Source of the DNA: Thermoanaerobaculia bacterium | Lineage (GTDB): Bacteria > Acidobacteriota > Thermoanaerobaculia > Multivoradales > UBA5704 | Assembly: GCA_035633875.1 (NCBI GenBank) | Contig: DASQEB010000642.1 | Span: forward strand, 1-49,587 | Length of the DNA: 49,587 nt | Direction of reading: 5' to 3' | Part shown: positions 5,847 to 36,206 of the stretch, piece by piece | How the letters are laid out: each line of letters starts with the position of its first letter | How positions within the stretch are numbered: position 1 is the first letter of the stretch | Program-made: the position numbers and the translations under genes | Notes under the pieces: generated by a model | What the model was told of the DNA's origin: nothing | The model's database searches: none | Seen by the model: only the letters and a program-made list of their open reading frames with translations

Positions 5847-5976
5847 CGGGATCGTTCTCCTCTCTCCTCAGGGAATTTTGAGGGCCTCGCGGTCGTGGGC
5901 TTTCAGCAGGGGCGTCCAGGGCATCCAGTCGCGCGGTCTAGAGGGCACGTTGGGCCTCGATCCAGCTCGCGGGAGC

Positions 5977-13854: not shown

Positions 13855-13871
13855 GGCGTGCTAAGGGACAT

Positions 13872-15419: not shown

Positions 15420-15431
15420 TCCAGTCCTCCT

Positions 15432-18400
15432 CTAGAGCTCGAATGAAGCGACGCCGATTTCCTCGTAAAGAACATTCACGAGGCCCTGAGCGTTTCGAAC
15501 CTTCAAGCGATAGCGATTCTCAATCTCGTTGATTGCAGTCTCATCCATATGCTGCATGACGGTGGCCGGCAACCAGGTCGAAACCGGTCTCCAGCCGCCC
15601 GCCATCCGCCGCAGAACCATAACTTCAAGCGGCTCGGCGGGTGACGACCAAGCCATCTGGACGGACTTCCCGTCGGAGGTCCATTCGGCCGAGATCCAGC
15701 TCAGAGGCATAGGAGGCCTTTGGTCGTAAGCTTGTGCCGAGGCAACTCGGGAGGGAGGAGAGGCGTTCACCTCTGCGTCTATCACTACCACTCGGTAGCA
15801 GTAGAGCTGAAGTGGCTCGACCGACGTATCGGTCCAGTGGTCTGCCAGAGGTTCCCCCGCTTCGCTGGACGTCATCAAATGCACCAAAGCCATCCGACGC
15901 ACGTCCTCAGCATCTCTTCGGGTATGTGCACGGTAAACGTGGAGCTCTCGAAGGGCCGGTCCTCTGTCCAAGGCCCATCGGATCGTGATTGTCCTCTCAC
16001 CTCCGAAAATCCCTGTAATCACCGGCGCCGGCGGCTCCACCTTCGGCAGATAAACCGGCGGCGTCGAGGGGCTCAAACCGCTCCGATTGTGGGCGCCGTC
16101 CACGAAGGCGGCACGGTAGAAGTAGCGATTGGTGGCCCTGCCTGGCAGGGTGTCCATGTAGGCGCGGACGGTTGGTTTCGGCGTGTAGTCGGCAGCATCG
16201 TCGGGTAGACGCCGATCCTGGACCTCGGGGTCGGTGTCGTCCAAGGGCTGAAGAGTGATCTGGGTGAATGCATCTTCGTTTCCCGGCAGACCGGCCAGGA
16301 TTCGGAGCGCGGAGTCCGAGAGGGTGCGGTAATCGTCCGGTGATTTGACGTCCACCAAACCGGAATTGCGTGTCTGGCGGATCTCCCAGTCGCGCTCCTT
16401 CAGAGCTTTCCGATCCCCAGCGCCTTCGTTGCCCGACAGGAGGGCCAGGACCTTCCAGGTGTTCTCCGAAAGGGAGTCGTAACCCGCTGGCGAGGTGATC
16501 TTATTCAACTCGGTCACCGCGGCCTGCCGCGTGGCCAAATCCCAACCATCGGGAAAGAGGTCCTGGTGCTTCTCGGGGTCCAGCGCCTCCCGCGTCTCCC
16601 GGATCAGCCAGTCCCGCTGGAACAGGCTGTCGTCCAACGCCCGCAAGACGTGCGTCTTGAGGTGCGGCCGCGGTTTCCACCGGAAGGAGAAGAACGAGCG
16701 GCTGTGGTAGTCCGCCCGGGTTGCCCACAGCCTGCCGCCGGGATAGTCCGCGAGCTCGGGCGGCTCCGGCGGGGTCTGGAGGACGCGGTAGATCGCGGCC
16801 GGCGGGCTCACCCTTCCCTCATTTCCGAAACGGTTCCCCAGAGGCGGGGCGCCCCACTTCGGGTCGTCCCCGGTGTGGATCTTGTCGTCCGCGGCGCTGA
16901 CGCCGATCTGGGCGAAGACGGTGGGACGTTCGAGGGTGGGACGGAATGGCTCGCCTTCTTTCAGGTCCGGCGCGGGGAGGAAGGTTTCGTAGATCCGCAC
17001 GGGCCGGCCGATCGTCCAGGGTGACGAGTTTCCGCCCAGGTCAGGCTCGCCGTCCAGGGTGACGGTGTGGAACTTGGGATCCACCTCTTCGATCCGGTAG
17101 GTCTTGCCGGGACGGGCAGTGTCGCTTGCCAGATACAGGTGGTCGAGCCAGGGCTGGAGGCCCGAGAGATCCACGTCCGGAGGGAAATGGGCAATCCCGC
17201 CGGCGACCGTGACCCCGGCGTTTTTGAAGGTCTCGGCGTCCAGGGGCCGATTCTCGGGGTCCCGGGAGGGCTCGATTCCCTCCTCCACCGCGTCGGCGTA
17301 GAGGACCACGGCGAGGCGCTTCGCCCAGTTGGCCGGCTGCCGGAGGTGGTCAAGGCCGATCTCGCCGGGAAGCTCGTTCAGGCGGCCAGGAATGTAATAG
17401 ATCCGGAACTCCCGGGTGTCCGGCGCCTGATTCATCTGGGACAGAGTCCATTTCCAGCGGACGCGCAGGCCGACGACATCCGGGTTCCTGTCCCGCCACT
17501 TCTCGTAGGGACTGTCCCGTAAAACCCAGCGGTCGAGTGGATCGAGGGCGGCAGCCTCGAGTCCGGTTGGATTCGGTGGAGGGATCTTGTCGAGCAGGGC
17601 CACCGCAAAGGAGTGAATCGGACGGTGGCCCGGGGCATCCTTCCTGTAGTACCACGGGAGTTCTTGGCCTGCCGGCGGATCCCACTGGTACCACTCGGCC
17701 GGCGGCCCCAGCGGGCTGCGGCGGCCGAAGAGGTCCTGACCCAGAACGCGATAGCTGTACCAGCCCTCGGCCAGGCCGGTGTCGATGACGCGGAGGGGAA
17801 CGGATGCGGGGGGCCACTCCGGGGAGCGGCGCGTCTCGCCGGGCGTGAGCGGCGGGGGCGGAGCCGCCGGCTCAGCGAGGACGACCGCCGAGGAGTCCGA
17901 GCCGTCCTCAGGGTCCGGCCGGAGGGGTTTGTACGCGTCGTCCGGAGGTACCTCCGCTGGCTCCTCTCCCGGCTCCTTGATCCCCAGGAAGGCCCGCCGC
18001 GGATAGTAGAGCACGGGGATGTTCGTCTCTTCCGTGGCTCCGGCCGACGGATCGGGAGGCGCTTCCCACCAAAGACCCACGTTGATCTGGGCGTCGTTCA
18101 ACTTGCCGTCCTGGGCACGGGTAGTGGCGCCGGGAAGGGCATAGACGCGGGCTTTTCCGGGCGGCGGCAGGGGAGGCGCGGGCGCGACGGTCTTGCCGAG
18201 GACGAGCCAGGCGTCCACGGCGTTCGCGTCCGGCTGGAAGGCGAGCCAGTCCAGAGCCGTGGAGGCGCTGCCGCCGAGGACGCCGGTGGGGTCGGCCAGG
18301 AGGAGGTAGTCATAGGGGATCCCAGGCTCGGCCGAGGAGTCCAGGAAGTAGAGGCCGAGCATCTGGGCGATGGCCGGGTGGAGGCTCGCCAGCAGGAGGA

Positions 18401-19757
18401 GGTCGAGGCAACGCTGATTCTCCAACCGGAAGGGCTCGGAGTCCGGCGCCGGCCCGAGGGGATCTCCCAGCAGCGTGGGGATGACGCGATTCGCCATGGG
18501 ACCGCCGCCGGGACCTCCCTTCACCAGGATCTCCAGCTGGCCATGGAGATCAGGGAAGGCATCCTCCCATCTCGCGGGCTCGCCGTAGATGATGCGCGAC
18601 AGGGCCAACTCCCGCGCTGCCGCGAAAGTCGCGGGTTTGCCCAGGCAGGGATAGTCCTTCTGCTCGACCGGTAGGCAGAGGGGGTACCGGAAGCCGGGGA
18701 CCTCGCCCCAGCCCCAGGTCTCACCCTGGCGGGTCGGCCAGACGCAGAGATCCAGGAGAGCCCCCTTGCCGGGACCGATCTCCACGGCGGTGAGCTCGTT
18801 GCCCTGCAGCGTGACCGCGACCGCCTCTCCGGCGTTCCCCCGGGCCAGGGCACGGCTCGCGACCGAGGTCCCGGCCAGGACGCGGATCTCGATCTCCGCC
18901 CCTTCCTCCGCCGTTCCGCCTGCCGGGCATTCCCAGCAGATCTCGTGGAGCAGGGCGGGATCAACGGTGGAGCTCGCCAGGACGACCCGGGCGAGAGCCT
19001 TGCCGGTCAGCGTCACGGTGCCGGTTTGGAGGGCCAGGGGCTGGAATTGCCGGATGTCGGCTCTCGCGCCGTCCCCCTCGAAGGCCGCGATCGTCAGCTC
19101 TCCCCGATTGGTGAGGAGCAGATCGATGCGGGTGGCCGGGCAGGGGAGATCAATTTCGAGCTGGCGGCTGGTCTGGAGCCCTGGGGGCGTGCCGTTCCAC
19201 TGCTCGATGAGCGTGTGGATCAGCGGCGGGCTCACCGGAGGGATTTCTGTCTGGAAGACGGCCCCCTTTGTCTCCCGGCCCCCCATGGTCGCGCCGAGCG
19301 GCTCGCGACGGAAATCGGCACATGTCCGGACGGTCCGGGGTCCTTCGGAGCGGAGGCCCACTCGGACGTCCACCCGCCGGACCTGAACGCCCGGCGTGAG
19401 ATCGAAACGCAGGGGCGCACCCTGATCAAGATCGACCCCGACCGTGCCAGACGGCGAAAATTCGTCCGTAAAGATCAGGCGCCGGGTGCTGCTCAGGAGG
19501 CCGAGGCGCGTCTCCAGCCCGGTACCGCGGGACGATCCGGGACGCAAGCCGCCGAGAAACGGGCTCAGGCAAAGCGGACGCCGCGGCTGGCTCTCCCGCC
19601 GGAAGAGATAGAACCCGTGCCAGGGGAACCCCCGCTCTGGGGCGAAGATCCACCGGCAGTGGAGGCCGTTGCGCAGGCGCGGGTGATCCTCGTCCGGCGG
19701 CTTGTCGTCCAGGATGCCCAGGACGAGCATCGCCAGATCGTCGGTCTGGAAACTCAT
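15432..19757 (-). CDS. Large multidomain protein (1441 aa), function unknown, with C-terminal FN3-like modules
   Basis: 4326-nt open frame. The N-terminus MSFQTDDLAMLVLGILDD has no signal peptide. Residues ~140-275 form a module homologous to residues ~1130-1265 of the 2625-aa protein. There are internal FN3-like endings (EGWYSYRVLGQDLFGRRSP). Two C-terminal FN3-like modules are visible (ITIRWALDRG...LYCYRVVVIDAEVNASPPS and SVQMAWSSPAEPLEVMVLRR...YRLKVRNAQG). Confidence 0.85.
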   Translation of the reverse strand: MSFQTDDLAMLVLGILDDKPPDEDHPRLRNGLHCRWIFAPERGFPWHGFYLFRRESQPRRPLCLSPFLGGLRPGSSRGTGLETRLGLLSSTRRLIFTDEFSPSGTVGVDLDQGAPLRFDLTPGVQVRRVDVRVGLRSEGPRTVRTCADFRREPLGATMGGRETKGAVFQTEIPPVSPPLIHTLIEQWNGTPPGLQTSRQLEIDLPCPATRIDLLLTNRGELTIAAFEGDGARADIRQFQPLALQTGTVTLTGKALARVVLASSTVDPALLHEICWECPAGGTAEEGAEIEIRVLAGTSVASRALARGNAGEAVAVTLQGNELTAVEIGPGKGALLDLCVWPTRQGETWGWGEVPGFRYPLCLPVEQKDYPCLGKPATFAAARELALSRIIYGEPARWEDAFPDLHGQLEILVKGGPGGGPMANRVIPTLLGDPLGPAPDSEPFRLENQRCLDLLLLASLHPAIAQMLGLYFLDSSAEPGIPYDYLLLADPTGVLGGSASTALDWLAFQPDANAVDAWLVLGKTVAPAPPLPPPGKARVYALPGATTRAQDGKLNDAQINVGLWWEAPPDPSAGATEETNIPVLYYPRRAFLGIKEPGEEPAEVPPDDAYKPLRPDPEDGSDSSAVVLAEPAAPPPPLTPGETRRSPEWPPASVPLRVIDTGLAEGWYSYRVLGQDLFGRRSPLGPPAEWYQWDPPAGQELPWYYRKDAPGHRPIHSFAVALLDKIPPPNPTGLEAAALDPLDRWVLRDSPYEKWRDRNPDVVGLRVRWKWTLSQMNQAPDTREFRIYYIPGRLNELPGEIGLDHLRQPANWAKRLAVVLYADAVEEGIEPSRDPENRPLDAETFKNAGVTVAGGIAHFPPDVDLSGLQPWLDHLYLASDTARPGKTYRIEEVDPKFHTVTLDGEPDLGGNSSPWTIGRPVRIYETFLPAPDLKEGEPFRPTLERPTVFAQIGVSAADDKIHTGDDPKWGAPPLGNRFGNEGRVSPPAAIYRVLQTPPEPPELADYPGGRLWATRADYHSRSFFSFRWKPRPHLKTHVLRALDDSLFQRDWLIRETREALDPEKHQDLFPDGWDLATRQAAVTELNKITSPAGYDSLSENTWKVLALLSGNEGAGDRKALKERDWEIRQTRNSGLVDVKSPDDYRTLSDSALRILAGLPGNEDAFTQITLQPLDDTDPEVQDRRLPDDAADYTPKPTVRAYMDTLPGRATNRYFYRAAFVDGAHNRSGLSPSTPPVYLPKVEPPAPVITGIFGGERTITIRWALDRGPALRELHVYRAHTRRDAEDVRRMALVHLMTSSEAGEPLADHWTDTSVEPLQLYCYRVVVIDAEVNASPPSRVASAQAYDQRPPMPLSWISAEWTSDGKSVQMAWSSPAEPLEVMVLRRMAGGWRPVSTWLPATVMQHMDETAINEIENRYRLKVRNAQGLVNVLYEEIGVASFEL

Positions 19758-19887: not shown

Positions 19888-20982
19888 TCATCCCTCCGCG
19901 AACGGCTCGAAGGCGGCGCTGGCCTCCGCGGCCAGGGCTGCGACGAGATCGGCGGCGGACCGGGGGGAGGCCAGGGGCGCCGACTGGCCGCCGTAGAACG
20001 GCAGGAGATCGTCGCGGCCGGCGCGGGTCGCCGCATAGCGAAGCTCCCGAGTGAGCTCGTTCTGGTGCGGGTAGGGGAGGATTTCGAAGGGAGGACGGGC
20101 CATCTCGTCCGCGACGCGGTTGGCGAGCATCCGCGCCAGACGCCCGGTGTAGGCCCGGGTGAGGGCCGTGCGCCGCGCGCGGGCACGGTCGGCGAGGGCC
20201 GCGCGGTGGAGCTCGCTCGCTCCGGACTCCCGGCACATCAGGAAGGCCGTGCCGATCTGCGCCGCCGCGGCGCCCAGGACCAACGCAGCCGCGACGCCGC
20301 GGCCGTCAGCGATGCCGCCCGCAGCCAGGACCGGGACCCGCACGGCGCTCACGACCTGGGGGACGAGCGACAGCGTCCCGGTGAGCGACTGCTCCGCGGG
20401 ACGGAGGAAGCTCCCGCGGTGCCCCCCGGCCTCGAACCCGGACGCGCACACGAAGTCGACGCCGCTCTCCTCCAGGGCCTCCGCCTCCTCGACCGTCGTC
20501 GCGGTGCCGATCAGCGCGATCCCCCGCCGGCGCGCCTCCTCCACCAGCGGCGCGGGCAGCAATCCGAAGATGAAGCTGAAGACCGCCGGTCGCGCCTCGA
20601 GCACGGCCTCGAACTGCCGCTCGAAATTCTGCACGGTGGGCGCCGGGGGCTGGGCGAGCGGCGGCAGCCCGAGCTCGTCCCGGTACGGCTGGAGACGCGC
20701 CAAAGCCCGGCCGGCCTCGGATGGATCCAGGTTCACGCCGTCCTCCCGCTCGCGGGGGATCCAGAGGTTGAGGGCGAACGGCTCGGCCGTCAGGCGCCGG
20801 ATGTCGGCCGCGGTCTGCAGGATCGCCTCGGGCTCCAGGTGATAGCAACCGAACGATCCCAGCCCGCCCGCGTTCGAGACGGCCGCCACCAGCTCGGGAG
20901 TCGATGCGCCGCCCCCCATCGGCCCCTGCACGATCGGATAGCGGCGGCCGAACCGCTCCGTGAACCGGGTGTTTGTCCACAT
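19888..20982 (-). CDS. Nitronate monooxygenase (NMO / 2-nitropropane dioxygenase family, FMN-dependent)
   Basis: MWTNTRFTERFGRRYPIVQGPMGGGASTPELVAAVSNAGGLGSFG...IAAGGIADGRG. I chose the start at 20982 because GAAAGGAG lies 7 nt upstream. The track start at 21000 is inside that RBS. Confidence 0.9.
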   Translation of the reverse strand: MWTNTRFTERFGRRYPIVQGPMGGGASTPELVAAVSNAGGLGSFGCYHLEPEAILQTAADIRRLTAEPFALNLWIPREREDGVNLDPSEAGRALARLQPYRDELGLPPLAQPPAPTVQNFERQFEAVLEARPAVFSFIFGLLPAPLVEEARRRGIALIGTATTVEEAEALEESGVDFVCASGFEAGGHRGSFLRPAEQSLTGTLSLVPQVVSAVRVPVLAAGGIADGRGVAAALVLGAAAAQIGTAFLMCRESGASELHRAALADRARARRTALTRAYTGRLARMLANRVADEMARPPFEILPYPHQNELTRELRYAATRAGRDDLLPFYGGQSAPLASPRSAADLVAALAAEASAAFEPFAEG

Positions 20983-21027
20983 CGGAAAGCTCCTTTCCAT
21001 CGGGGGCGGGCCCCGCCCTGGGGAACC

Positions 21028-22560
21028 TTACAACTCTTTGGCGGCTGGCCGCAGCCGAGGGCGGGGTGTGTCTTCCCAGGCAAAAACGCTCGCTCCGCTC
21101 ATCGCACTCGCCAGAGCGTCCCGCTTCGCCGGCCAATCGTTGATCGGCCGGGGCAGGCGTTCGGCAGCGATCACGAGCTCCAGGGCTTCGCGCAATCCTT
21201 CCGAGAGCTCGGCGGCTGGGAAGAGGGCGCGGCGGGCGGCCTCCTCCTCCACCCGCTCGGGCTCGCAGCCCCAGAGCCGGGCGGCCAGGGCACGGAGGTC
21301 GTCCCACGCGACACGGGCGCCGTCCGCCCAGCGGCGGAAACAGCGGTGAACCTCCTCGGCGGCGGCCGCTGCTTCAGCCGCCGCTGGGAAGACGGGATTG
21401 AAGCAGAAGGTTCGGACGAAGCGCCAGGCGGGCAGGGAGTCGAGCTGCTCGGCGAGGAGGCGGAGCAGGGCTTCCTCATCGTCCTTGCCGTCCAACTCAA
21501 GGGTTTGAGCCAAGGTCCGGAGGGCGCCCTTCACCCCGCCCAGGACGCGGCAGGCCTCGGCGGCGAGGGCTTCAAAGCGGGCTTCTTCGCGATACTCGGG
21601 CTCCGGGAGGAAGGCGCGGCCGAAGCGCTCCTCGTGGCAGCGCCGGAGGCTCGCGGCGATCTCCTCCTCGCGGCCGGGGGGCGGGGCGAGCCCCCGATGG
21701 GCAGCGGCCGAGACGAGGAGCGAGCGGATCCGGACCTGCCGCGCGAAGGCGGGGGCCTCCGGGTGGAAGAGCTGGGCCATGCGCCAGGCGCTCAGGAGGC
21801 GGGCGCTTTCCGGGCCGGCCGGGGGGCACCGCAGGGAGACCTCCTTGTAGAAGCTGACGTAGTCGCTCACCACGCGCTCCCGGGGACACGGGGCAGGCCC
21901 CCCGTCCAGGGCCAGCTCCAGGGCCTGGCGCGCGTCCTCCTGCTTGACGCTCTCCGTGGCCAGGATGCGGGCGAGCTCTCCGGTTGCAGGCTTCCCCAAG
22001 TGGAGACGGGCCAACTCGACGACGCGGGCAGGGTGGCGGTCGAGGAAGGAGAGGGCCTTCAAATCCGCGATCAGGCGCCTGGCCGCCTCCGGCTCCGCGG
22101 CTCCCGAAGCCTGGAGGCGCGCAAGTGCGTGCCGCACCTCGACGAGGGCCAGGGTGACGGGCCGGTAGCCGTGCTCGGCTGGCGCATGGAGGAGGGCGAC
22201 TTCGTCGTCGCCGTCGAGGGCGCCCGTCCGGTACCAATCGAAGACGGTCCCCACGCCGATCATGCCGAAGGGCGCGAGCTCCACGGCCCGCAGGGCTCCG
22301 AGGCTCGCCGCTCCGATCACCCGGACGCCGGCGTCCAGAGCGTAGAGAAGCTCTTTGTGGGGCACGGACGGGACGGTGAAGTAGTAGCCGTCCAGAAGGA
22401 TCATGGTCCTTGGATGATGGGCGAGGGCGGCGAGGACGTCCCCGCGCTGGACGGGCGGACGCACATCGCAGGCGGCGAGGAGGGAGCGCCACGCGGGGTC
22501 CGGATCCCGGGGCAGGGTCGGCCCGGCGAAGACCACGACTTGCGAGGGACTTTCACCCAT
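21028..22560 (-). CDS. tfuA: TfuA-like protein with an unusual ~300-aa C-terminal extension
   Basis: From the internal Met the sequence reads MGESPSQVVVFAGPTLPRD...VRPPVQRGDVLAAL...ILLDGYYFTVPSVPHKELLYALDAGVRVIGAASLGALRAVEL..GMIGVGTVFDWY, which is the TfuA signature. The ATG overlaps the YcaO stop (ATGGGTGA). The first 60 codons of the track ORF are an Arg/Ser/Pro-rich artefact. Confidence 0.85.
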   Translation of the reverse strand: MGESPSQVVVFAGPTLPRDPDPAWRSLLAACDVRPPVQRGDVLAALAHHPRTMILLDGYYFTVPSVPHKELLYALDAGVRVIGAASLGALRAVELAPFGMIGVGTVFDWYRTGALDGDDEVALLHAPAEHGYRPVTLALVEVRHALARLQASGAAEPEAARRLIADLKALSFLDRHPARVVELARLHLGKPATGELARILATESVKQEDARQALELALDGGPAPCPRERVVSDYVSFYKEVSLRCPPAGPESARLLSAWRMAQLFHPEAPAFARQVRIRSLLVSAAAHRGLAPPPGREEEIAASLRRCHEERFGRAFLPEPEYREEARFEALAAEACRVLGGVKGALRTLAQTLELDGKDDEEALLRLLAEQLDSLPAWRFVRTFCFNPVFPAAAEAAAAAEEVHRCFRRWADGARVAWDDLRALAARLWGCEPERVEEEAARRALFPAAELSEGLREALELVIAAERLPRPINDWPAKRDALASAMSGASVFAWEDTPRPRLRPAAKEL

Positions 22561-23692
22561 GGGACTTCTCCTTGAAGCCGGGGACGAAGACCCGCGCCAC
22601 CGGCACCCCGACTTCCGGGCGGCTGAGGTCGACCCACCAGGTCTCCAGCCCGTGTCCCGCCAGGATCTCGACGACCCGGTCGAGATCGGAGGCGACGCTC
22701 GCGGTCGAGAGGTCCGGCAGGTCGGCGAAGCAGCGGACACCTTCGGGCTCCTGGAGCTCTTCGAAGAGCCGGTGCGCCGCCTCCCCGGCTCCGAGGAGGG
22801 GCAGGTCGTCCCGGGCTCCCGAGATGTAGGTCAGGCGGGACTGGGCTGCCTCGGTGAGCGCCCGCGACAGGGCCACGGCCGGCTCCGGGTGACAGCCCGA
22901 GCCCCACCAGACGTTGGCGATGTCCGGAGCGGCGATCTCCGCCTGGAGGACGGGGATGCCGGCCTCCCATGTGACGTCATAGAGGGCGAGCTTGAAGCCC
23001 GCGGCATGGATCTTTTCGAGGGACTCGCGGAGCCAGGGAGCCTCCACCGAGTCTTCCCGCAAAGGCACCTTCCGCCAGGGCTCTCGCGCGGCGAGGCGGA
23101 CGCCGTGGCGCTCGACGAGCTCGCACACGCCGTGGAGGACCGCCTCCTCCAGGCAATTGCCCGAGGCGAGGCCGTTCGACGTCCGGCTGAACAGCCGCAG
23201 CGGCAGGGCCGGGGGCTCGGTGAAGTCCAGCTCCAGCATCCAGCGCGGCAGCCAGCCGTCCCGGCCTCCCCGCCAGCAGCGGGCGCGGACCCACGGCATG
23301 GGCAGGGCGAAGGCTTCGGGAGGGAGGAAGACCCAGCGCAGGGAGGTGAGCGGCACGGGGTTGTCGTACCGCATCTCCTGCGGGGAGAGCGTCACCTGGG
23401 GAAGGTGGCCGAGGTCCTCGGCGTGCCAGAGCTCCAGCGCCTCCATGACGGCGCTCGCCCGGGCGGCAGCCGGCGTGGCCCCCTTGCCCTGGGAGACGGA
23501 GAGGTTCCGGCTGGCGGGCCGCACCGCCTGCCAGACCGGGATGCCGATCCGATCGAGCCCGGTCACGTCGGCCACCCGGGTGACCCCGGCCCGGGGCAGG
23601 ACGTCCCGGACGCCGTCCAGCGTCTCCTCGGGACGTCGGATGCGGTGGGTACCGATCCGGAACCTCTTGGGGGAGGTCTCAGAAGGAATCAG
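22553..23692 (-). CDS. ycaO: YcaO-domain protein (TfuA-associated type). Start codon uncertain.
   Basis: ...KRFRIGTHRIRRPEETLDGVRDVLPRAGVTRVADVTGLDRIGIPVWQAVRPASRNLSVSQGKGATPAAARASAVMEALELWHAE...NGLASGNCLEEAVLHGVCELVERH. There is no in-frame ATG, GTG or TTG near the expected N-terminus. The nearest options are CTG (23692) and ATT (23689), which overlap the upstream stop. Confidence 0.8.
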   Translation of the reverse strand: MIPSETSPKRFRIGTHRIRRPEETLDGVRDVLPRAGVTRVADVTGLDRIGIPVWQAVRPASRNLSVSQGKGATPAAARASAVMEALELWHAEDLGHLPQVTLSPQEMRYDNPVPLTSLRWVFLPPEAFALPMPWVRARCWRGGRDGWLPRWMLELDFTEPPALPLRLFSRTSNGLASGNCLEEAVLHGVCELVERHGVRLAAREPWRKVPLREDSVEAPWLRESLEKIHAAGFKLALYDVTWEAGIPVLQAEIAAPDIANVWWGSGCHPEPAVALSRALTEAAQSRLTYISGARDDLPLLGAGEAAHRLFEELQEPEGVRCFADLPDLSTASVASDLDRVVEILAGHGLETWWVDLSRPEVGVPVARVFVPGFKEKSHG

Positions 23693-24294
23693 GCGTTCCC
23701 CCGGGGCTCCGACCGGCCGCCCTTGGTCATCACCAGGATGCGCCAGCCGATCTGCTTGAGCTTGCCCAGGATGACGGTCATGTTGCCGGCCAGCACCTTG
23801 CCGTTGGTGAAGTGCTCGACCACGCGATAGGTGGCGCCGGCGCGGCTGCCGCCAACGTGGACGATCTGGAGTTGGCTGACCTCCACCTGGCGCGGAGAGA
23901 ACGGCGGGAACTCCCGCAGGATCTCCTGGAACTGTGGGCTCGACATCCATTTGTCCACAATGGCCTGATCGATCATCACCAGTCCCTCGGAGGTGACCGA
24001 CAGGTGGGGGTCCGCGGCAAACTCCCGCCACCGTTGCTGCATCTGGTCCCAGGGCAGGGACTCCAGGCCGAGGATCAGGGTTTCGATCTCCTGGTCGTCC
24101 TGCGGATGAGTGGGGAGACCGTCGTTGACGAGGTCGTGCTCGGCGATGGGAATGCAGACCGCCGCGACGCCCACGGTGCGCGTCAGCCCACCGGCGGGCT
24201 CCAGGTGAAGGCCGAGCTCCCCGGCGGCCTCGTCGAAGGCCCGCTGGAGCGATTTTTCGCGGTCCTGCACTGACTCGTGCTTTTCATTGTTCAC
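23689..24294 (-). CDS. Hypothetical protein (201 aa). The C-terminal half may have an NTF2/SnoaL-like fold.
   Basis: Balanced, protein-like composition (MNNEKHESVQDREKSLQRAFDEAAGELGLHLEP...QVEVSQLQIVHVGGSRAGATYRVVEHFTNGKVLAGNMTVILGKLKQIGWRILVM). It is the first gene of the co-directional YcaO/TfuA run. The fold guess is by eye only. Confidence 0.6.
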   Translation of the reverse strand: MNNEKHESVQDREKSLQRAFDEAAGELGLHLEPAGGLTRTVGVAAVCIPIAEHDLVNDGLPTHPQDDQEIETLILGLESLPWDQMQQRWREFAADPHLSVTSEGLVMIDQAIVDKWMSSPQFQEILREFPPFSPRQVEVSQLQIVHVGGSRAGATYRVVEHFTNGKVLAGNMTVILGKLKQIGWRILVMTKGGRSEPRGNA

Positions 24295-24445
24295 AGAAAA
24301 GCCCTCCCATTCAGAAGAAGATAGATTGTGGAAGCCGCGGGAGCATATCTGCGCCGCACCGGGTTTGTCGAGCCACGGCTGCTGGTTGCGCGCTGGAAAG
24401 GCCCCCGGTAAGATCCCTTCGTCCTCCCCGGACCTCAGTCCAGGT

Positions 24446-27004
24446 ATGCTCGGTACGACGCTCAGCCATTACCACATCCTTCGGGAGGTCGGACGCGGCG
24501 CCATGGGCCAAATCTACCTGGCCCGCGATACGCGCCTGAACCGCAACGTCGCGCTCAAGATGCTGCCGCCGGCCCTCGTCTCCGACGAGCGGCGCCGCCG
24601 GCGCTTCGACCGGGAATCCAAGGCTCTCGCCGCGCTCAACCACCCGAACGTGGTCACCATCCATTCCGTCGAGGAGGTGGACGGCCAGCCGTTCCTGGTC
24701 ATGGAATGGATCCAGGGCCGGTCCCTGGAGGAGCTGATCTCTCCGGGAGGGCTGCCCCTCGAACGCTACCTGGAGCTCGCGATCCCCCTGATCGAGGCGG
24801 TGTCCCAGGCGCACCAGGCGGGCATCATCCACCGCGACCTGAAGCCGGCCAACATCATGGTCCGGGACGACGGAGTGCTGAAGGTGCTCGACTTCGGCAT
24901 CTCGCGGATCGAGCAGGAGACCATGATCGACGGCCACGCGGGCACTGAGAGCCTGACCGCCGAAGGACTCGTCGTCGGCACCCTCCCCTACATGGCGCCG
25001 GAGCAGTTGGAAGGCCGGCCGGTGGACCCCCGGTCGGACATCTTCTCCCTGGGGATCATCCTCTATGAGATGGCGGCGGGCGTCCGCCCGTTCTACGGCG
25101 GCAGCTCGGCTTCTCTGGTCTCCTCGATCCTTCGGGACGACCCTCTCCCGCTCTCAGGTGTGCGGGAGGCCCTGCCTTCGGCCCTCGAAGCGATCGTGGC
25201 GCGCTGCCTGGCCAAGCGGCCCCAGGACCGTTTCCAGACCGCTGCCGAGCTGCGCCAGGCCCTCCGCGCCCTCCAGCGGGAGTTGGAGCTGGGGACCGCC
25301 GCCACGGCCGCGCCGGCCCCGTGGTCGTCCTCGGCCTCGGCCCTTTCCGCGGCGACCGCCCCCACGCTGACCTCGGCGACATCGATCACCCTCCCCTCCG
25401 TGCCGACTCTTCCCACCCTGCAGGCCCCGGTGACGTCTGTGGCTCCGGGACGCTTGCGGCGCAGGCTCCCGCTCCTGGCGGCCCTGGCGGTCGTCGTGAT
25501 CGGGATGGTCGTGGCGGCCGGGCTGTTCTGGCGCGGGAGGGAGCACGAGGGCACAGCGGCCCCGTCCCGCCCGCCCAACGTGGGCACGGTCCTGCCCGCC
25601 GCGGCGCGCCCGGCCGTCTCGTCCATCGCCGTCCTCCCCCTGCGCAACCTCTCGGGGGACCCGGGGCAGGAGTTCTTCTCGGATGGGACGACCGAGGCCG
25701 TGATCGCCAATCTCGCCAAGATCGGGGGCCTCCGGGTGACCTCGCGCAACGCTGTGATGCGCTACAAGAGCCAGCAGACCGAGCTTCCCCAGATCGCCCG
25801 CGAGCTGGGCGTGGACTACCTTCTGGAAGGGTCGCTGCTGCGGTCGGGGGATGAGTTGATGATCATCGTCCAGCTCGTCGATCCCAAGACGGACAGCACG
25901 GTCGTCTGGGGAGACTCCTACAGAGGCAGCCTGGGGGACGTCTTCGCCTTCCAGCAGCAGGTCGCGGAGGCGGTGGCCCGGCAGACCAAGGGAGAGCTGA
26001 CGGCAGCCGACCTCTCCCGGCTGGGGCATGTCCAGCAGGTCGCGCCCGAGGTCTACGAGACCTACCTCAAGGCGCGCTACCTCCTGCACCAGCGGACCCC
26101 CGATGCTCTCCAGCAGGCCCTCGCCCTGGTCGACCGGGCGCTCGAACGGGACCCGACCTATGCCCTGGGCTGGGCGACCCAGGCGGAGTGCTACCTCTAC
26201 CTGACGATCGGCGGGATCTCCGCCCTGCCGCCCCAGGAAGGGTTGCCCAAGGCCCGCGAGGCGGCGCTCCGGGCCCTCGATCTGGACGAGAGCCTCTCGG
26301 AGGCCCACGCGGCCCTCGCCTTCGCCCACCTGCAGAATTGGGAGTGGAACAAGGTCGAGCGCGGGTTCCGCCGCGCTCTGGAGCTGAACCCGAGCAACGC
26401 GGACGCCTACCTCAAGTTCTCGCTCTTCCTCACCGCCCGCAAACGCCACGACGAGGCGATCGCCGCCGTCGAGACGGCCCGCCGGCTCGATCCGCACTCC
26501 GTGCACATCCGGATCACGTACACCGGCATGAGCTTCCTCGCGCGCCGATACGAGGCAGCGGCCGAGAGTGCGCGAGCGGCGATCGCCCTGCAGCCGGACC
26601 ACTGGCTCCCCCACTACCACCTCGGCACCATCCTGTCCTTCCAGGGCAAGCCCCGGGAGGCTGAGGCCGAGTTGCGGGAGGCCCTTCGCCTCAGCCAGGG
26701 CGACCCGCTCGCCCTGGCGGCCCTGGCCCGCCAGGACGCCCTCGCCGGCAGAACCGCATCGGCCCGCCGGATCGTGGCCGAGCTCGAGGCGGCCTCGCAG
26801 CGCGACTGGATCCCTCCGTCCACCCTGGCCTCCCCCCTCTTCGCCCTGGGCGAGGTCGACCGCGCTTTCGAATGGCTCGAGAAGGGCGTGGACGTCCGCG
26901 ATCAGCAGCTCGTGCTCCTGGACGTCCATCCGTTCTACGACCCTTACCGCTCCGACCTGAGATTTCAGCGCCTCCTCGCCGAGGTCGGGCTCAAGCGCGG
27001 GTGA
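24446..27004 (+). CDS. Membrane-anchored Ser/Thr protein kinase with a periplasmic-type sensor and a TPR C-terminal region
   Basis: From the ATG at 24446: LSHYHILREVGRGAMGQIYLARD..VALKML...HRDLKPANIMV...DFGISR...YMAPEQ. One TM helix (LPLLAALAVVVIGMVVAAGLFW) follows. Next is a TolB-N-like segment (IAVLPLRNLSGDPGQEFFSDGTTEAVIANL), then TPR repeats. Confidence 0.9.
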   Translation: MLGTTLSHYHILREVGRGAMGQIYLARDTRLNRNVALKMLPPALVSDERRRRRFDRESKALAALNHPNVVTIHSVEEVDGQPFLVMEWIQGRSLEELISPGGLPLERYLELAIPLIEAVSQAHQAGIIHRDLKPANIMVRDDGVLKVLDFGISRIEQETMIDGHAGTESLTAEGLVVGTLPYMAPEQLEGRPVDPRSDIFSLGIILYEMAAGVRPFYGGSSASLVSSILRDDPLPLSGVREALPSALEAIVARCLAKRPQDRFQTAAELRQALRALQRELELGTAATAAPAPWSSSASALSAATAPTLTSATSITLPSVPTLPTLQAPVTSVAPGRLRRRLPLLAALAVVVIGMVVAAGLFWRGREHEGTAAPSRPPNVGTVLPAAARPAVSSIAVLPLRNLSGDPGQEFFSDGTTEAVIANLAKIGGLRVTSRNAVMRYKSQQTELPQIARELGVDYLLEGSLLRSGDELMIIVQLVDPKTDSTVVWGDSYRGSLGDVFAFQQQVAEAVARQTKGELTAADLSRLGHVQQVAPEVYETYLKARYLLHQRTPDALQQALALVDRALERDPTYALGWATQAECYLYLTIGGISALPPQEGLPKAREAALRALDLDESLSEAHAALAFAHLQNWEWNKVERGFRRALELNPSNADAYLKFSLFLTARKRHDEAIAAVETARRLDPHSVHIRITYTGMSFLARRYEAAAESARAAIALQPDHWLPHYHLGTILSFQGKPREAEAELREALRLSQGDPLALAALARQDALAGRTASARRIVAELEAASQRDWIPPSTLASPLFALGEVDRAFEWLEKGVDVRDQQLVLLDVHPFYDPYRSDLRFQRLLAEVGLKRG

Positions 27005-27045: not shown

Positions 27046-28341
27046 ATGAGCGAGCTCGGCTGGAAGTACCTGACCCCGGACGACAAGGCCGCGATTCTGC
27101 GGGGGATCGAGGACGGTGTCGCCTATGGCGGCCCGTATCACGTGGAGTTCCACCCCGCGGACCGCTGCAACATCGACTGCTTCTTTTGCTCGACCGCATC
27201 CCTCCGTGGCACGGACGAGATCCCCATGCCCCGCTTCGAGGAGCTCCTGGGCGAGCTCAAGGAGGCCGGCACCCGGGCCATCCGCCTCTCCGGCGGCGGC
27301 GAGCCCCTGTTCCACCGGAACATCAAGCCCTTCCTCCAGGCCATCGGGACGAGCGGCATCCCCATCGAGAACCTCACCACGAACGCCGTCCTCCTGCGGC
27401 CGGAGATCGTGGAGCTCCTGCTGCCCGTCTGCGATCAGGTCACCATCAGCCTGAACACCGGGGACGAAGAGACCTATGGCTCGATGATGAAGACCAACCC
27501 TCGCAACTTCCAGCGGGTGATCGACAACGTCAAACACCTGGTCTCCGAGAAGCGCAAGCGCCGGCAGAAGAACCCCCTGGTGAATCTCCAGTTCCTCGTC
27601 TGGAAGGAGAATTACAAGGGAATCCCCGAGATGTACCGCCTTGCCCGGGAGATCGGCGTCGACACGATCCTGTTCAACGGCCTCTCCTTCCTCACCCCCG
27701 ACCAGCAGATGACGCCGGCCGAGACCGAGGAGATGATGGGACTTTACGAGGAGATCGTCCTCGTCGACGGCTACCGCAAGATCTCCTGCATCAACAGCTT
27801 CGAGCAGGACCTCTCGGAACACCTGGAAGCCATGCACAAGCGGGTCGGCGCCCGCTACGGCCGGATGTCCCTTCCCCGGCGGGCCGCGAGGCTCCTCCTG
27901 CGCGACGATTTCACCCTCGCCGAGAAGGTGGATCACATCAAGCGGCGCCTGGAGAGGCGGAAGATGGGCAGGGCCAACGAGGGTCTCGACAGCTACTGCC
28001 TGATCGGCTGGCACTCGATGCTCGTCCGCACCACCGGCATGGTGGCGCCCTGCTGCATCCTGCAGGGCAAGGAACTGGGCAACGTCTACAAGCAATCCGT
28101 CCGGGACGTCTGGCACGGCGAAGCCTTTCAGCAGTTCCGGCGCGAGCTCTCCCGCATCCTGCGCGAGAAGGAGTCCTGGCAGCACGATCCCGCGACCGAC
28201 CGCACCGTCGACGGCATGTGCGGCGCCAAGGGCGCCTGCCCCATCGCCACCTTCTACTACTGGCCGGACAGCCGCTTCCTGCGCTCGTTCAACGAGAGCG
28301 TGCGGCGGCTGGACGAGTTGGAACGCGGCGCGGCGGCGTAA
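27046..28341 (+). CDS. Radical SAM protein with a SPASM-type C-terminal Cys cluster
   Basis: CNIDCFFC (CxxxCxxC) at residues ~41-48, GGGEPL, and C-terminal ...CLIGWHSMLVRTTGMVAPCCILQGKELGNVYKQSVRDVWHGEAFQQFR...MCGAKGACP. It starts 41 nt downstream of the kinase stop. Confidence 0.9.
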   Translation: MSELGWKYLTPDDKAAILRGIEDGVAYGGPYHVEFHPADRCNIDCFFCSTASLRGTDEIPMPRFEELLGELKEAGTRAIRLSGGGEPLFHRNIKPFLQAIGTSGIPIENLTTNAVLLRPEIVELLLPVCDQVTISLNTGDEETYGSMMKTNPRNFQRVIDNVKHLVSEKRKRRQKNPLVNLQFLVWKENYKGIPEMYRLAREIGVDTILFNGLSFLTPDQQMTPAETEEMMGLYEEIVLVDGYRKISCINSFEQDLSEHLEAMHKRVGARYGRMSLPRRAARLLLRDDFTLAEKVDHIKRRLERRKMGRANEGLDSYCLIGWHSMLVRTTGMVAPCCILQGKELGNVYKQSVRDVWHGEAFQQFRRELSRILREKESWQHDPATDRTVDGMCGAKGACPIATFYYWPDSRFLRSFNESVRRLDELERGAAA

Positions 28342-28353
28342 CCTCACCACGCC

Positions 28354-28369
28354 CAGGGTGGAAACCCTG
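28354..28369. terminator. Small hairpin between convergent genes (CAGGGT-GGAA-ACCCTG)
   Basis: Perfect 6-bp stem with a GGAA tetraloop, 13 nt after the radical-SAM stop and 22 nt from the SDR stop. There is no clear U-tract. Confidence 0.3.
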
Positions 28370-28390
28370 CGCGATCGGAGGCTCTACCCC

Positions 28391-29173
28391 CTACCCCTGC
28401 AGCAGCGACTGCCCCCCGTCGATCCAGACCGGCGTGCCGGTGATGTGACTGGATTCGTCCGAAGCGAGAAAGAGGACGAGGCGGGCCACCTGGTCGGCGG
28501 AGCCGGGCTTGCCGTCGGTGAGCGGGATCTCCCCTTCCGGGTACTCCACCGGCTCCTTGGCCTTCTCTTCATCCCGGTGCTCGGTGTTCTCTTCGATGTC
28601 GGTCTCGATCGCCCCGGGGCAGATGACGTTGACACGGATCCTGTGCTTGGCGAGCTCCAAGGCCAGCATCTTGGTCAGGGCGACCTGTCCCGCTTTGGTG
28701 GTGGCGTAGGCCGAGGCGCCGCTGTTGCTGAACATCCGCGTGCCGTTGACGGAGGAAGTGACGACGATCGAGCCACCCTGTTTCTTGAGATGGGGCACCG
28801 CGGCCTTGATGGCGTAGAAGGTGCCGGAGAGATTGATGGCGAGCGTCTTTTCCCACTCCTCCGGCGCCAGCTCGTCGATCGGCGCCCAGACGCCGTTCAC
28901 CCCGGCGTTGGCGAAGACGACGTCGAGCCGTCCCCAGCGGTCCACGATCTCCCGGACCGCCCGCTCCATGTCCTCGTACTTGGAAACGTCTCCTTGCACG
29001 GCCATCGCCTCACCGCCTCCCTCTCGGATCCGCTCCAGCGTCTCCTCCAGCTTCTCCTTCGTCCGGCCCAGGACCGCGACCTTCGCCCCTTCAGCCGTGA
29101 AGAGCTCCGCCGTCGCCTCTCCGATCCCCGAGCCTCCCCCCGTGATGAACGCCACTTTGTCTTCGAGTCTCAT
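28391..29173 (-). CDS. Short-chain dehydrogenase/reductase (SDR) family oxidoreductase
   Basis: 260 aa with TGGGSGIG (NAD(P)-binding), NAG, S..YATTK (catalytic YxxxK) and the PGAIET motif. Confidence 0.9.
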   Translation of the reverse strand: MRLEDKVAFITGGGSGIGEATAELFTAEGAKVAVLGRTKEKLEETLERIREGGGEAMAVQGDVSKYEDMERAVREIVDRWGRLDVVFANAGVNGVWAPIDELAPEEWEKTLAINLSGTFYAIKAAVPHLKKQGGSIVVTSSVNGTRMFSNSGASAYATTKAGQVALTKMLALELAKHRIRVNVICPGAIETDIEENTEHRDEEKAKEPVEYPEGEIPLTDGKPGSADQVARLVLFLASDESSHITGTPVWIDGGQSLLQG

Positions 29174-29294
29174 ACACCGTTACCTCCGGGCGGGGAGAGA
29201 CCGCAAAGCCCGTGCCGGGAGGACCGGCTGCAACCCCGTCCCTCCCAGGGCGTACAATCCGCCCCGGAGAGGACAACCAGGAGGACCGATCGTG

Positions 29295-30536
29295 ATGGCT
29301 CGCAGATTCACAACCTTCGCCGCGGCGGCGCTCGCCGCGGTTTCGATGGGAAACATGGCCCTGGCGGCGGACTGGCCGCAGTGGCGGGGCCCCGCCCGCG
29401 ACGGAGTCGCGGCCTCGTTCAAGGCGCCGAAGACCTGGCCCGAGAAGCTCGGGAAGGTCTGGAGCGTGGAGGTGGGCGGCGGGCACTCCTCGCCAGTGGT
29501 CGCGGGCGGGAGAATCTTTCTCCACTCGCGGCAGGGGGACGACGAGGTGGTCTCCGCCCTGGACCTCGCGAGTGGCAAGGTCCTGTGGCGGGACTCCTAC
29601 CCCGCCTCCTTCAAGCCCGCCCCCGAGGCGCAGCGCCACGGCCAGGGCCCCTTCTCCACTCCGACCTTCCACGACGGACGGCTCTACGCCTTCGGCGTCA
29701 ACGGCATCCTCTCGGCCTACGACGCCGCGAGCGGCAAGCTCGCATGGCGGCGTGACTTCGGCAAGGACTTCCCCACGCCCCGGCCGTACTACGGCACCTC
29801 GCTGTCGCCGCTCCTGACCGACGGCCTCTGCATCGTCTACGCGGGCGGTCCCGGCAAGGGAGCGCTGTTCGCTCTGGACGCGAAGACCGGGGGGGTGAAG
29901 TGGCGGCTGGACGGTGACGGCTCCGGGTACGGCTCGCCGGTCGTGGCCACCTTCGGCGGCGTCCGCCAGGTGATCGTCCCCACCCAGCAGGCGATCCTGG
30001 GAGCCTCGCTCGCGGACGGCAAGCTCCTCTGGCAGATGCCCTTCAAGATCCCCTACGACCAGAACATCCTCACGCCCGTGGTGTTCGAGGACACCCTGAT
30101 CGTCTCGGGGGAGGACACGGACGCTCAGGCGATCCGGGTCGCGAAACGGGATGGGAAGTGGGCGACCGAGAAGGTCTGGTCCAACCGGCCGTCCATGATG
30201 TACATGAGCTCCCCCGTGCTCTCGGGCGGTCTTCTCTACGGGTTCGCCACCACCCGGAAAGGGCACCTCTTCTCCCTGAACCCGAAGACCGGCGAGGTGC
30301 GCTGGGCGACCCAGGGAGGCGAGGGGGATCATGCCTCCCTCGTCGCCGCCGGGGACGTCCTCTTCGTCCTCGGCAGCAATGCCGAGCTCGACGTGGTCCA
30401 GAGGACGGGGGAGGGCTACAAGCGCCTCGCCCGCTACACCGTGGCGGACAGCCCCACCTGGGCCTACCCGGTGGTCCTCGACGGCCGTCTCCTGGTCAAG
30501 GATGCAAACCGCCTCACCCTCTGGAGCCTGTCCTGA
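29295..30536 (+). CDS. Secreted PQQ-like/BamB-like beta-propeller repeat protein
   Basis: Signal peptide MARRFTTFAAAALAAVSMGNMALA|ADWPQWRGPARDG, then repeated ...G.VLW... blades. AGGAGGA lies upstream of the ATG at 29295. The upstream part of the 571-aa track ORF is antisense to the SDR gene and is an artefact. Confidence 0.85.
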   Translation: MARRFTTFAAAALAAVSMGNMALAADWPQWRGPARDGVAASFKAPKTWPEKLGKVWSVEVGGGHSSPVVAGGRIFLHSRQGDDEVVSALDLASGKVLWRDSYPASFKPAPEAQRHGQGPFSTPTFHDGRLYAFGVNGILSAYDAASGKLAWRRDFGKDFPTPRPYYGTSLSPLLTDGLCIVYAGGPGKGALFALDAKTGGVKWRLDGDGSGYGSPVVATFGGVRQVIVPTQQAILGASLADGKLLWQMPFKIPYDQNILTPVVFEDTLIVSGEDTDAQAIRVAKRDGKWATEKVWSNRPSMMYMSSPVLSGGLLYGFATTRKGHLFSLNPKTGEVRWATQGGEGDHASLVAAGDVLFVLGSNAELDVVQRTGEGYKRLARYTVADSPTWAYPVVLDGRLLVKDANRLTLWSLS

Positions 30537-30545
30537 GGTTGTAGG

Positions 30546-35269: not shown

Positions 35270-35299
35270 TTGACTTACGCCAAATTTACGCTTTATATT
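35270..35299 (+). promoter_or_regulatory. Candidate sigma70-type promoter for imuA-imuB (TTGACT-N18-TATATT)
   Basis: TTGACT at 35270-35275 and TATATT at 35294-35299. The spacer and flanks carry three direct TTACG repeats (35275, 35286, 35299). The predicted TSS lies within a few nt of the first ATG (35307), so the mRNA could be leaderless, or the real start could be the ATG at 35322 (MARLS). Confidence 0.35.
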
Positions 35300-35306
35300 T
35301 ACGTCC

Positions 35307-36203: not shown

Positions 36204-36206
36204 TCC

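Follow-up and report, generated by a model that had tools for sequence, protein, structure and literature searches.

Organization of the locus

The stretch of 49,587 nucleotides at positions 1-49,587 of contig DASQEB010000642.1 of a Thermoanaerobaculia bacterium (phylum Acidobacteriota; assembly GCA_035633875.1), referred to here over its whole length as the window, encodes a YcaO protein and an adjacent TfuA protein that are parts of a conserved, translationally coupled cassette: the gene of a 201-aa protein, designated p201, is followed by the YcaO gene and then by the gene of a long TfuA. The cassette is typical of Thermoanaerobaculia and usually lies beside the gene of a signalling kinase. 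The window is about 70% G+C and therefore contains many long spurious open reading frames (ORFs); genes were picked with a filter on third-codon-position G+C together with domain searches. Four consecutive genes on the minus strand encode p201, YcaO, the 510-aa TfuA and a nitronate monooxygenase, and the features of the locus are as follows.

23689-24294, minus strand: p201 (201 aa), first gene of the operon (ORF and fold model)
22553-23692, minus strand: YcaO (379 aa if CTG 23692 is the start), PF02624; the ORF spans 22553-24031
21916-22560, minus strand: TfuA core, residues 1-215 of the 510-aa protein (PF07812, NF033432, Foldseek)
21028-21915, minus strand: TfuA C-terminal extension, residues 216-510 and the stop codon (AlphaFold2 model, conservation)
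23689-23692, minus strand: CTGA junction, the TGA stop codon of p201 on the presumed non-canonical CTG start of YcaO
22553-22560, minus strand: overlap of the YcaO stop and the TfuA start, ATGGGTGA (read from the sequence)
24342-24371, minus strand: sigma-70-like promoter match 5' of p201, in the divergent intergenic region (consensus match)
24446-27004, plus strand: receptor-type Ser/Thr kinase, divergent from p201 (Pkinase and TPR)
19888-21000, minus strand: nitronate monooxygenase (ORF, domain searches)

The three cassette genes are chained by overlaps at both junctions. The stop codon of YcaO and the start codon of TfuA share the 8 nt ATGGGTGA (within ...CATGGGTGA...), as the original prediction from the DNA letters had it, so that TfuA directly adjoins YcaO on the same strand; all relatives have the same order. 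At the other junction, the start codon of YcaO in three relatives (L002, L003, L014) is a GTG placed on the p201 stop codon (GTGA), where the window reads CTGA; more generally, the GTG of the relatives lies at the position of the window CTG or a few bases downstream of it, and the spacing between p201 and YcaO in their gene calls is a 4-nt overlap or a gap of at most 10 nt. Because the window has no in-frame ATG, GTG or TTG ahead of the conserved 'KRFRxGTHR' N-terminus of YcaO, translation most likely starts at CTG 23692 or at ATT 23689. The CTG could be a genuine start with translational coupling, a G-to-C change, or a sequencing error.

The only sigma-70-like site between 19700 and 24700 is the one just 5' of p201 (0.1 expected in shuffled sequence), and no terminator-like site was found within the same interval. 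The absence of a small precursor gene, claimed originally, stands: no precursor-like ORF is present in the 150-bp region upstream of p201 or downstream of TfuA, and no small gene is conserved across the homologous loci examined. Scans of the window for tRNA genes and Rfam families gave no match.

Conservation of the p201-YcaO-TfuA cassette

In tblastn searches with the proteins of the window, p201 was found directly 5' of YcaO in every related genome whose locus reaches far enough. The conserved order is a protein of approximately 186-211 aa without a Pfam match, then YcaO, then the long TfuA, whereas the surrounding genes vary. The same order emerged from searches started with the long TfuA and from searches started with p201, and YcaO and a long TfuA lay downstream in every look-up begun from a p201 homologue. 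A profile of 39 p201 sequences, applied to the six-frame translation of the window and of 171 loci fetched from genome and metagenome collections, found matches in the window and in 16 distinct loci, each with this particular TfuA extension, and in none of the 152 loci with other types of TfuA. A clustering of the ORFs located 5' of YcaO in the other TfuA families was noisy in such high-GC DNA, and only the p201 group was recovered cleanly.

Two loci bear the extension without a clear p201 match. The sequence of one (L004) ends 215 nt upstream of YcaO. The other (L085) has in the place of p201 a 363-aa protein (5751-6842), both halves of which are NTF2-like, and which gives a weak match to the p201 profile (E 0.015); a fragment of an IS240-family transposase lies just upstream of this gene. 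The 201-aa protein, at first counted as a mere neighbour, is thus the coupled first gene of the operon and accompanies the extension in 16 other loci, and we regard its membership of the system as very probable.

No other gene shares this constancy. The nitronate monooxygenase, which had been listed as the second relevant neighbour, adjoins the cassette in the closest relative only and is absent from further related loci; it and a radical S-adenosylmethionine (SAM)/SPASM protein encoded near the kinase were rejected as parts of the system, since conservation of each stops at the one or two nearest relatives and both lie in slowly evolving flanks. No protease or exporter is conserved with the cassette in the homologous loci examined, nor is any tailoring enzyme.

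The cassette is rare. A phmmer search of 1.84 billion representative proteins with the extension alone returned 73 representative clusters, among which every full-length match follows a TfuA core at the same position, the others being short fragments; the p201 family comprises 42 clusters. So far the system is known only from Thermoanaerobaculia, from other Acidobacteriota and from a single genome of Krumholzibacteriia.

Two of the related loci have peculiarities of their own. In L169, a long-read assembly, the long TfuA gene is split over three frames (8933-10437), either as a pseudogene or by indel errors. In L084, a gene for a ThiS/MoaD-like protein ending in Gly-Gly (776-1051, minus strand) is found 5 kb upstream of the cassette, adjoining genes of two small membrane proteins and a sedolisin/S8-type peptidase; its proximity to the cassette may be a coincidence. 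Two small ORFs of L084 were considered as precursors and discarded, as they encode small hydrophobic proteins.

YcaO and the core of TfuA

The assignment of the two enzymes in the original prediction is borne out by matches to PF02624, TIGR00702, PF07812 and NF033432. YcaO is a bare 379-aa YcaO domain that matches PF02624 over its full length (profile positions 1-324 of 325, E 3.8e-71, 240.5 bits against a cut-off of 25.7). Its best NCBIfam match is a generic domain model, TIGR00702 (224 bits against a cut-off of 75.65), followed by TIGR03266, the YcaO of McrA-glycine thioamidation (216.1 bits, below the equivalog cut-off of 365 bits); by these scores it is a relative of the latter family, not an orthologue. 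The E. coli-type model NF040716 matches weakly (54 bits).

The TfuA core is delimited by PF07812 (residues 57-175, E 5e-40, 136.4 bits against a cut-off of 30) and by NF033432 (residues 7-215, model positions 1-206 of 211, 155.5 bits, not reaching the equivalog cut-off of 235.2). A profile search of the PDB matched the core with E 6e-44, and residues 1-218 of the structural model superpose on the TfuA of M. acetivorans (6XP8; Foldseek E 2.7e-11, template modelling (TM) score 0.84, 29% identity).

By homology, YcaO and TfuA constitute a predicted thioamidation-type pair. YcaO enzymes use ATP to phosphorylate or adenylate a backbone amide oxygen. The mechanism of TfuA, with sulfide coming from thiocarboxylated ThiS, was reportedly described by Liu et al. 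in 2021. TfuA supplies the sulfide by hydrolysis of a thiocarboxylated ThiS-type carrier (summarised in PMC13063428), and the product of the combined chemistry is a backbone thioamide (PMC5589413).

The C-terminal extension of TfuA

Behind the core, residues 216-510 of TfuA form a region rich in alanine (19%), arginine (12.5%) and glutamate (11.5%). An AlphaFold2 model of the 510-aa protein, built on an alignment of 29 homologues, has a mean predicted local distance difference test score (pLDDT) of 86.8 and a predicted TM score of 0.80; DSSP assigns 13 helices to residues ~233-485, with isolated beta-bridge residues and no sheet, and pLDDT is 76-96 in most 10-residue blocks from ~250 to ~490. 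Composition and model together agree with the Ala/Arg/Glu-rich helical character first ascribed to the extension. No Pfam family matches it even at E <= 10, and neither Foldseek nor a profile search found a significant match in the PDB beyond the TfuA core. The suggestion that the extension might resemble a RiPP recognition element (RRE; RiPP, a peptide made by the ribosome and modified post-translationally) was rejected, because the winged helix of an RRE needs a three-stranded sheet whereas the model is all-helical, and no Pfam match points that way.

With the 510-aa protein as the query, over 120 cluster representatives (~410-565 aa) were recovered that retain the extension without an internal stop codon; most cover ~94% of the query, at 41-77% identity, and those that are named come nearly all from metagenome-assembled genomes of Thermoanaerobaculia or Acidobacteriota. 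In a metagenome scan with the TfuA alignment, at least two long-TfuA loci were among the matches listed. Sixteen residues of the extension are invariant among the 29 aligned sequences (H266, R277, R279, P319, E322, E326, A327, W379, R383, A401, A426, W430, R444, A466, E467 and N474), and the ratio of nonsynonymous to synonymous divergence (omega) of the extension between the window and its closest relative, L167, is 0.35, a sign of purifying selection.

The extension is not distinctive by its length. TfuA matches in the fetched loci were extended to the stop codon, giving 144 measurable ORFs outside this family, of which 46 encode 218-291 aa and 98 encode 343-633 aa, the latter with a C-terminal region of 100-400 aa belonging to other families. 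The 'usual ~200-250 aa' of the original prediction therefore suits the archaeal TfuA 6XP8 (217 aa) and about a third of the bacterial sample and fails for bacteria generally; what stands of the claim that this TfuA is oversized is its 510 aa and its extra conserved domain. The length is ordinary for bacteria, and the distinctive part is this family of extension.

The other extensions fall into groups of 50 loci, 29 mostly myxobacterial loci, 8 actinobacterial loci and several small ones. Alignment by hhalign gave the window extension probabilities of 3%, 20% and 0.6% of homology to the three main families, and homology to these was rejected on that basis (none above 20%); the helix motif 'R.R.LL..A...GL' is a hint of something shared with the myxobacterial group. 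One TfuA (L046) is fused to Lant_dehydr_C, a lanthipeptide-dehydratase C-terminal domain, and the extension of another (L016) has a weak SurA_N_3 match. The C-terminal domains of other bacterial TfuA proteins, with at least three large unrelated families among loci L001-L166, appear to be largely uncharacterised.

The p201 family

No match to p201 was found among Pfam families, NCBIfam families (at E <= 0.01) or PDB sequence profiles. Its AlphaFold2 model (mean pLDDT 82.7) consists of a helix at residues 9-26, a flexible segment of low confidence at 27-60 (pLDDT below 50 at residues 35-47), and an alpha+beta cone at 64-193. Foldseek matched the cone to 186 PDB entries at E <= 1e-3, led by the CaMKII hub and bacterial NTF2-like proteins (E ~1e-5, probability 1.0, TM 0.6-0.77), so that residues 64-193 have, according to the model, the fold of the NTF2-like superfamily.

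The invariant residues of the family are distributed over all three parts: Q17, F20 and L29 in the N-terminal helix or just after it; G42 (codon 24169-24171), with the near-invariant A44, in the disordered segment; and I70, E78, W89, P130, P134, R135, A152, E160, N164, N171 and W184 in the cone. Among the closest relatives L16, too, does not vary. A short disordered tail of 6-15 residues follows a partly conserved KGG at the C-terminus and is not kept between clades. In the comparison with L167, p201 evolves faster than the other genes of the cassette (omega 0.73 overall); omega is 0.93 over its first 62 residues and 0.60 within the cone; apart from its few invariant anchors, the N-terminal segment evolves almost neutrally.

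The median pI of the p201 family is 5.1 and that of the TfuA extension is 8.6 (mildly basic), and the TfuA core is acidic; the values would allow a weak charge complementarity between p201 and the extension. p201 was rejected as a sulfur carrier because it has neither an invariant cysteine nor a C-terminal Gly-Gly. Models of anti-phage systems (PADLOC) did not match p201, YcaO or TfuA, and matched the neighbouring kinase only through generic kinase models.

The neighbouring kinase and divergence of the four-gene block

The kinase divergently transcribed from p201 has a Pkinase domain (E 2e-48) and C-terminal TPR families, joined by a linker and a hydrophobic stretch that was read by eye as a single transmembrane segment. 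An orthologue is adjacent to the cassette in eight loci (L002, L003, L014, L081, L086, L088, L167 and L168), and a more distant kinase is encoded upstream in L084, on the same strand as the cassette. A 431-aa radical SAM/SPASM protein is encoded directly 3' of the window kinase on the same strand (27046-28341, plus strand), in the slow flank; its best NCBIfam match is a tungsten-cofactor oxidoreductase maturase (104 bits, far below the cut-off), and it adjoins the kinase in L167 and L168 only.

The window and its closest relative, L167, run collinearly for 11 kb. For genes of the flanks and of the block that comprises the kinase and the cassette, the two share the following protein identities.

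HlyD, flank: 92%
PQQ-like, flank: 91-92% (two tblastn segments)
SDR, flank: 97%
Radical SAM/SPASM, flank: 97%
Monooxygenase, flank: 90%
Kinase, block: 74%
p201, block: 52%
YcaO, block: 75%
Long TfuA, block: 76%

The DNA of the block (21028-27004) has diverged by ~20%, against ~6% in the flanks (19888-21000 and 27046-31463). Sliding identity is ~0.93-0.95 in the flanks, 0.74-0.85 in the block and 0.58-0.67 in p201, and it changes sharply at ~27000 and ~21000, where the kinase gene and the TfuA gene, respectively, have their 3' ends. Synonymous divergence (dS, by the Nei-Gojobori method) amounts to 0.20-0.29 for the flanks, against 0.49-0.54 for each of the four genes of the block; the kinase, YcaO and TfuA have omega values of 0.31-0.35. 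These are rough estimates owing to strong codon bias. When L168 is added, the flanks are tree-like (window and L167 97% identical, each 74-87% identical to L168), whereas the block is star-like, with identities of 0.75, 0.75 and 0.73 for YcaO and of 0.52, 0.56 and 0.44 for p201. The C-terminal, presumed sensor half of the kinase is more diverged than its kinase domain.

The doubling of dS, the sharp edges and the star-like pattern mean that the four genes share a history distinct from that of their surroundings: the kinase belongs to the same evolutionary unit as p201, YcaO and TfuA. The pattern suggests that the block has been exchanged as a unit, or that it consists of old divergent alleles. 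The contrast between flanks and cassette is clear in this one closely related pair of genomes and weaker and mixed in other pairs.

In a sister clade (L083, L085, L169 and L170) the membrane kinase is lacking, and a methyltransferase and a large signalling protein are encoded convergently to the cassette.

L085 10548-15673, L170 4004-8202, L169 9907-14034 and L083 9640-13000: SAM methyltransferase and large TIGR03903-like protein

TIGR03903 matches the signalling protein over nearly its full length, with 600 bits in L085 and L170 and 474 bits in L169 (cut-off 705), whereas it matches the window kinase with 153.8 bits over the kinase domain only. The clusters from which this family, the 'TOMM system kinase/cyclase fusion protein', was defined are YcaO-based TOMM (thiazole/oxazole-modified microcin) clusters of Burkholderia and relatives (PMC2887384).

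Relationship to known systems

The cassette combines ordinary chemistry with an undescribed three- or four-gene arrangement and an unnamed partner family; a full-text literature search returned nothing on this type of TfuA, on its NTF2-like partner, or on YcaO systems of Thermoanaerobaculia. According to a paper of 2026, backbone thioamides in proteins are known from methyl-coenzyme M reductase (MCR; subunit McrA) and ribosomal protein uL16 only (PMC13063428).

The archaeal system that makes the thioglycine of McrA resembles the window in having a stand-alone YcaO immediately followed by TfuA, in the fold of its TfuA (6XP8), which is that of the window TfuA core, and in a protein substrate rather than a small peptide, as is proposed here; its models TIGR03266 and NF033432 are the best family-specific NCBIfam matches of the window YcaO and TfuA. 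It differs in that both equivalog cut-offs are missed (216 against 365 bits and 155 against 235 bits), in that it is archaeal whereas the window is bacterial and contains no MCR gene, in its TfuA of ~217 aa without an extension as opposed to 510 aa, and in that McrA is encoded outside the YcaO-TfuA operon whereas the window operon encodes a dedicated 201-aa protein.

The second protein-modifying system, E. coli YcaO, thioamidates the folded protein uL16, recognizing it by an extended, electrostatically complementary surface and not by a leader and an RRE; it has no TfuA, and the gene of its substrate is unlinked (PMC13063428), whereas the window possesses a TfuA and a linked candidate substrate.

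Thioamitide and thiopeptide clusters such as that of thioviridamide (PMC8120280, PMC6511847) likewise have adjacent YcaO and TfuA genes, with the gene of the candidate substrate coming first in the operon. Unlike them, the window has no short Cys/Ser/Gly-rich precursor and no conserved tailoring enzymes, protease or exporter, and its candidate substrate contains a folded 130-aa NTF2-like domain; nor is there an RRE in the extension or in YcaO, as there would be in a canonical thioamidated RiPP cluster.

The closest architectural precedent, by analogy, is the NHLP-Burk type of TOMM system, with its YcaO cassette, protein-sized precursor and signalling kinase. The precursors have an enzyme-derived leader of ~108 aa and an 11-aa suffix and are encoded beside the YcaO enzyme and a large Ser/Thr kinase, with no transporter (Haft et al. 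2010, PMC2887384). The window resembles this system in its YcaO cassette, in a candidate precursor of protein size with a folded-protein ancestor, in the lack of a transporter, and in the large signalling kinase nearby. The NHLP-Burk enzyme, unlike that of the window, is a fused cyclodehydratase-docking YcaO, which converts C-terminal cysteines into azolines in the absence of TfuA; the precursors are nitrile-hydratase-like, whereas p201 is NTF2-like and matches neither TIGR03793 nor TIGR03795, and the window kinase is a membrane receptor kinase with TPR that agrees with TIGR03903 over its kinase domain only. Other bacterial long TfuA proteins have, as in the window, a core followed by a C-terminal region of 100-400 aa, but their extension families differ and no p201 is encoded nearby.

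Proposed function of the cassette

The idea of a full-length protein substrate, already put forward in the original prediction, is a reasonable one, for which p201, set aside there, is the obvious candidate because it co-occurs strictly with the enzyme pair, is translationally coupled to it, and is the first gene of the operon. Under this proposal, YcaO would activate a backbone amide oxygen of p201 with ATP, and the TfuA core would deliver sulfide from a thiocarboxylated ThiS-type carrier, resulting in a backbone thioamide. p201 would be the dedicated partner of the pair and most likely its protein-sized substrate, the modified site being probably in a flexible part, either the N-terminal segment around Gly42 or the short C-terminal tail, and the helical C-terminal domain of TfuA would most likely dock p201 onto the enzymes.

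The traits of p201 that suit a substrate are its position as the first gene of the operon, its flexible and fast-evolving N-terminal segment with invariant anchors, and the lack of any conserved small precursor. There is precedent for protein substrates in the thioamidation of McrA and uL16 (PMC5589413, PMC13063428). Several points weigh on the other side. Every functional link in the proposal is drawn from genomics; the NTF2-like domain, with its invariant E78, R135, E160, N164 and N171, might instead serve as an enzyme or as an adaptor that binds a ligand; the genes of McrA and uL16 are not adjacent to those of their YcaO enzymes (PMC13063428, PMC5589413); and the window contains no ThiS-like gene. 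The loci come mostly from one bacterial class, and the co-occurrence counts are therefore not phylogenetically independent. The extensions of other TfuA families may have other roles, and since such families exist, a long TfuA says little by itself. On balance, p201 as the substrate, with the TfuA extension as its docking domain, has about an even chance of being the right reading.

If p201 were instead an accessory protein, it would act with the TfuA extension to present a substrate encoded elsewhere, which might be a housekeeping protein like McrA and uL16, or the kinase. The proteins known so far to be thioamidated are indeed encoded away from YcaO (PMC13063428, PMC5589413), the invariant polar residues of the NTF2-like domain suit a binding pocket, and the tight translational coupling suits stoichiometric subunits of a complex; yet an omega of 0.73, rising to 0.93 in the N-terminal segment, is unusual for a subunit that has to bind an enzyme as well as a conserved housekeeping target, no remote substrate candidate emerged, and the first position in an operon is typical of precursors. 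An accessory role is accordingly a serious alternative, though on the unlikely side.

A more doubtful alternative is that p201 is a long precursor of the RiPP type, its NTF2-like domain serving as leader or follower to a short terminal segment that is thioamidated and released as a small peptide. Parallels exist in the NHLP and NHLP-Burk precursors of TOMM systems (PMC2887384), in the nearly full-length TIGR03903 protein beside the cassette in the sister clade (600 against 705 bits), and in the short disordered tail of p201 after the partly conserved KGG. They are set against the lack of a protease or exporter conserved in the cassette, the shortness of the tail (6-15 residues) and its difference between clades, and the failure of p201 to match any NCBIfam model, those of NHLP included.

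The evolution of the block raises a further, speculative possibility, namely that the four genes are a polymorphic signal-and-receptor cassette with a logic like that of comQXP or of agr pherotypes. p201 or a fragment of it would be thioamidated and then sensed by, or regulated through, the receptor Ser/Thr kinase, whose part a TIGR03903-type kinase/cyclase would play in the sister clade, and the four genes, as specificity alleles, would diversify in concert at a chromosomal site that is itself conserved. The doubled dS with its sharp edges, the star-like phylogeny, the fast evolution of p201 and the divergent sensor half of the kinase all fit; the absence of an exporter from the cassette and of a signal peptide from p201 does not, and the block pattern is clear in only one pair of closely related genomes. 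We consider such a cassette rather improbable.

It is very unlikely that the product is a small thioamidated RiPP of the conventional kind, encoded by a short ORF that escaped annotation, with p201 and the kinase as unrelated syntenic neighbours. Gene callers often miss short precursor genes, and most loci examined come from one bacterial class; but no small ORF is conserved beside the cassette in these loci, the intergenic regions are too short to hold one, and p201 is translationally coupled to YcaO, stays with the cassette while its other surroundings change, and is found in 0 of 152 other TfuA loci. Finally, a long TfuA produced by frameshift or assembly fusion with a downstream ORF, an artefact that the original prediction had named as a threat to its claim, can be dismissed in view of the more than 120 clusters of the same architecture without an internal stop codon, the 16 invariant residues, the confident model, and the purifying selection (omega 0.35).

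McrA and uL16 were found as substrates by indirect means, whereas here the genome itself points to a candidate, which is a small, soluble protein of 201 aa whose gene shares an operon with those of its putative enzymes. Were p201 to be modified as proposed, it would be the third thioamidated protein and the first to be encoded together with its own enzymes; the unnamed NTF2-like family and one bacterial TfuA C-terminal domain would gain a function, and the cassette would offer a tractable system for recognition of folded substrates by TfuA and YcaO. The link to a kinase and the divergence of the block hint at signalling or strain-specific recognition, not antibiotic production.

Other features of the window

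Downstream of the cassette, at 5977-19757 on the minus strand, a 515-aa phospholipase-D-like ORF (13872-15419) is flanked by two giant ORFs, one encoding 2625 aa with DUF6603 and repeats like those of 3-keto-disaccharide hydrolases, and the other encoding 1441 aa with no Pfam match. Between 12 and 16 kb of the window the G+C content is 0.55-0.59, down from ~0.70, and the region could be a toxin-like locus or an island that was acquired. On the other side of the cassette, at 35274-37760 on the plus strand, a RecA-like gene is followed by a gene for a polymerase of the impB/mucB/samB family, a pair that looks like a mutagenesis cassette of the imuA-imuB type.

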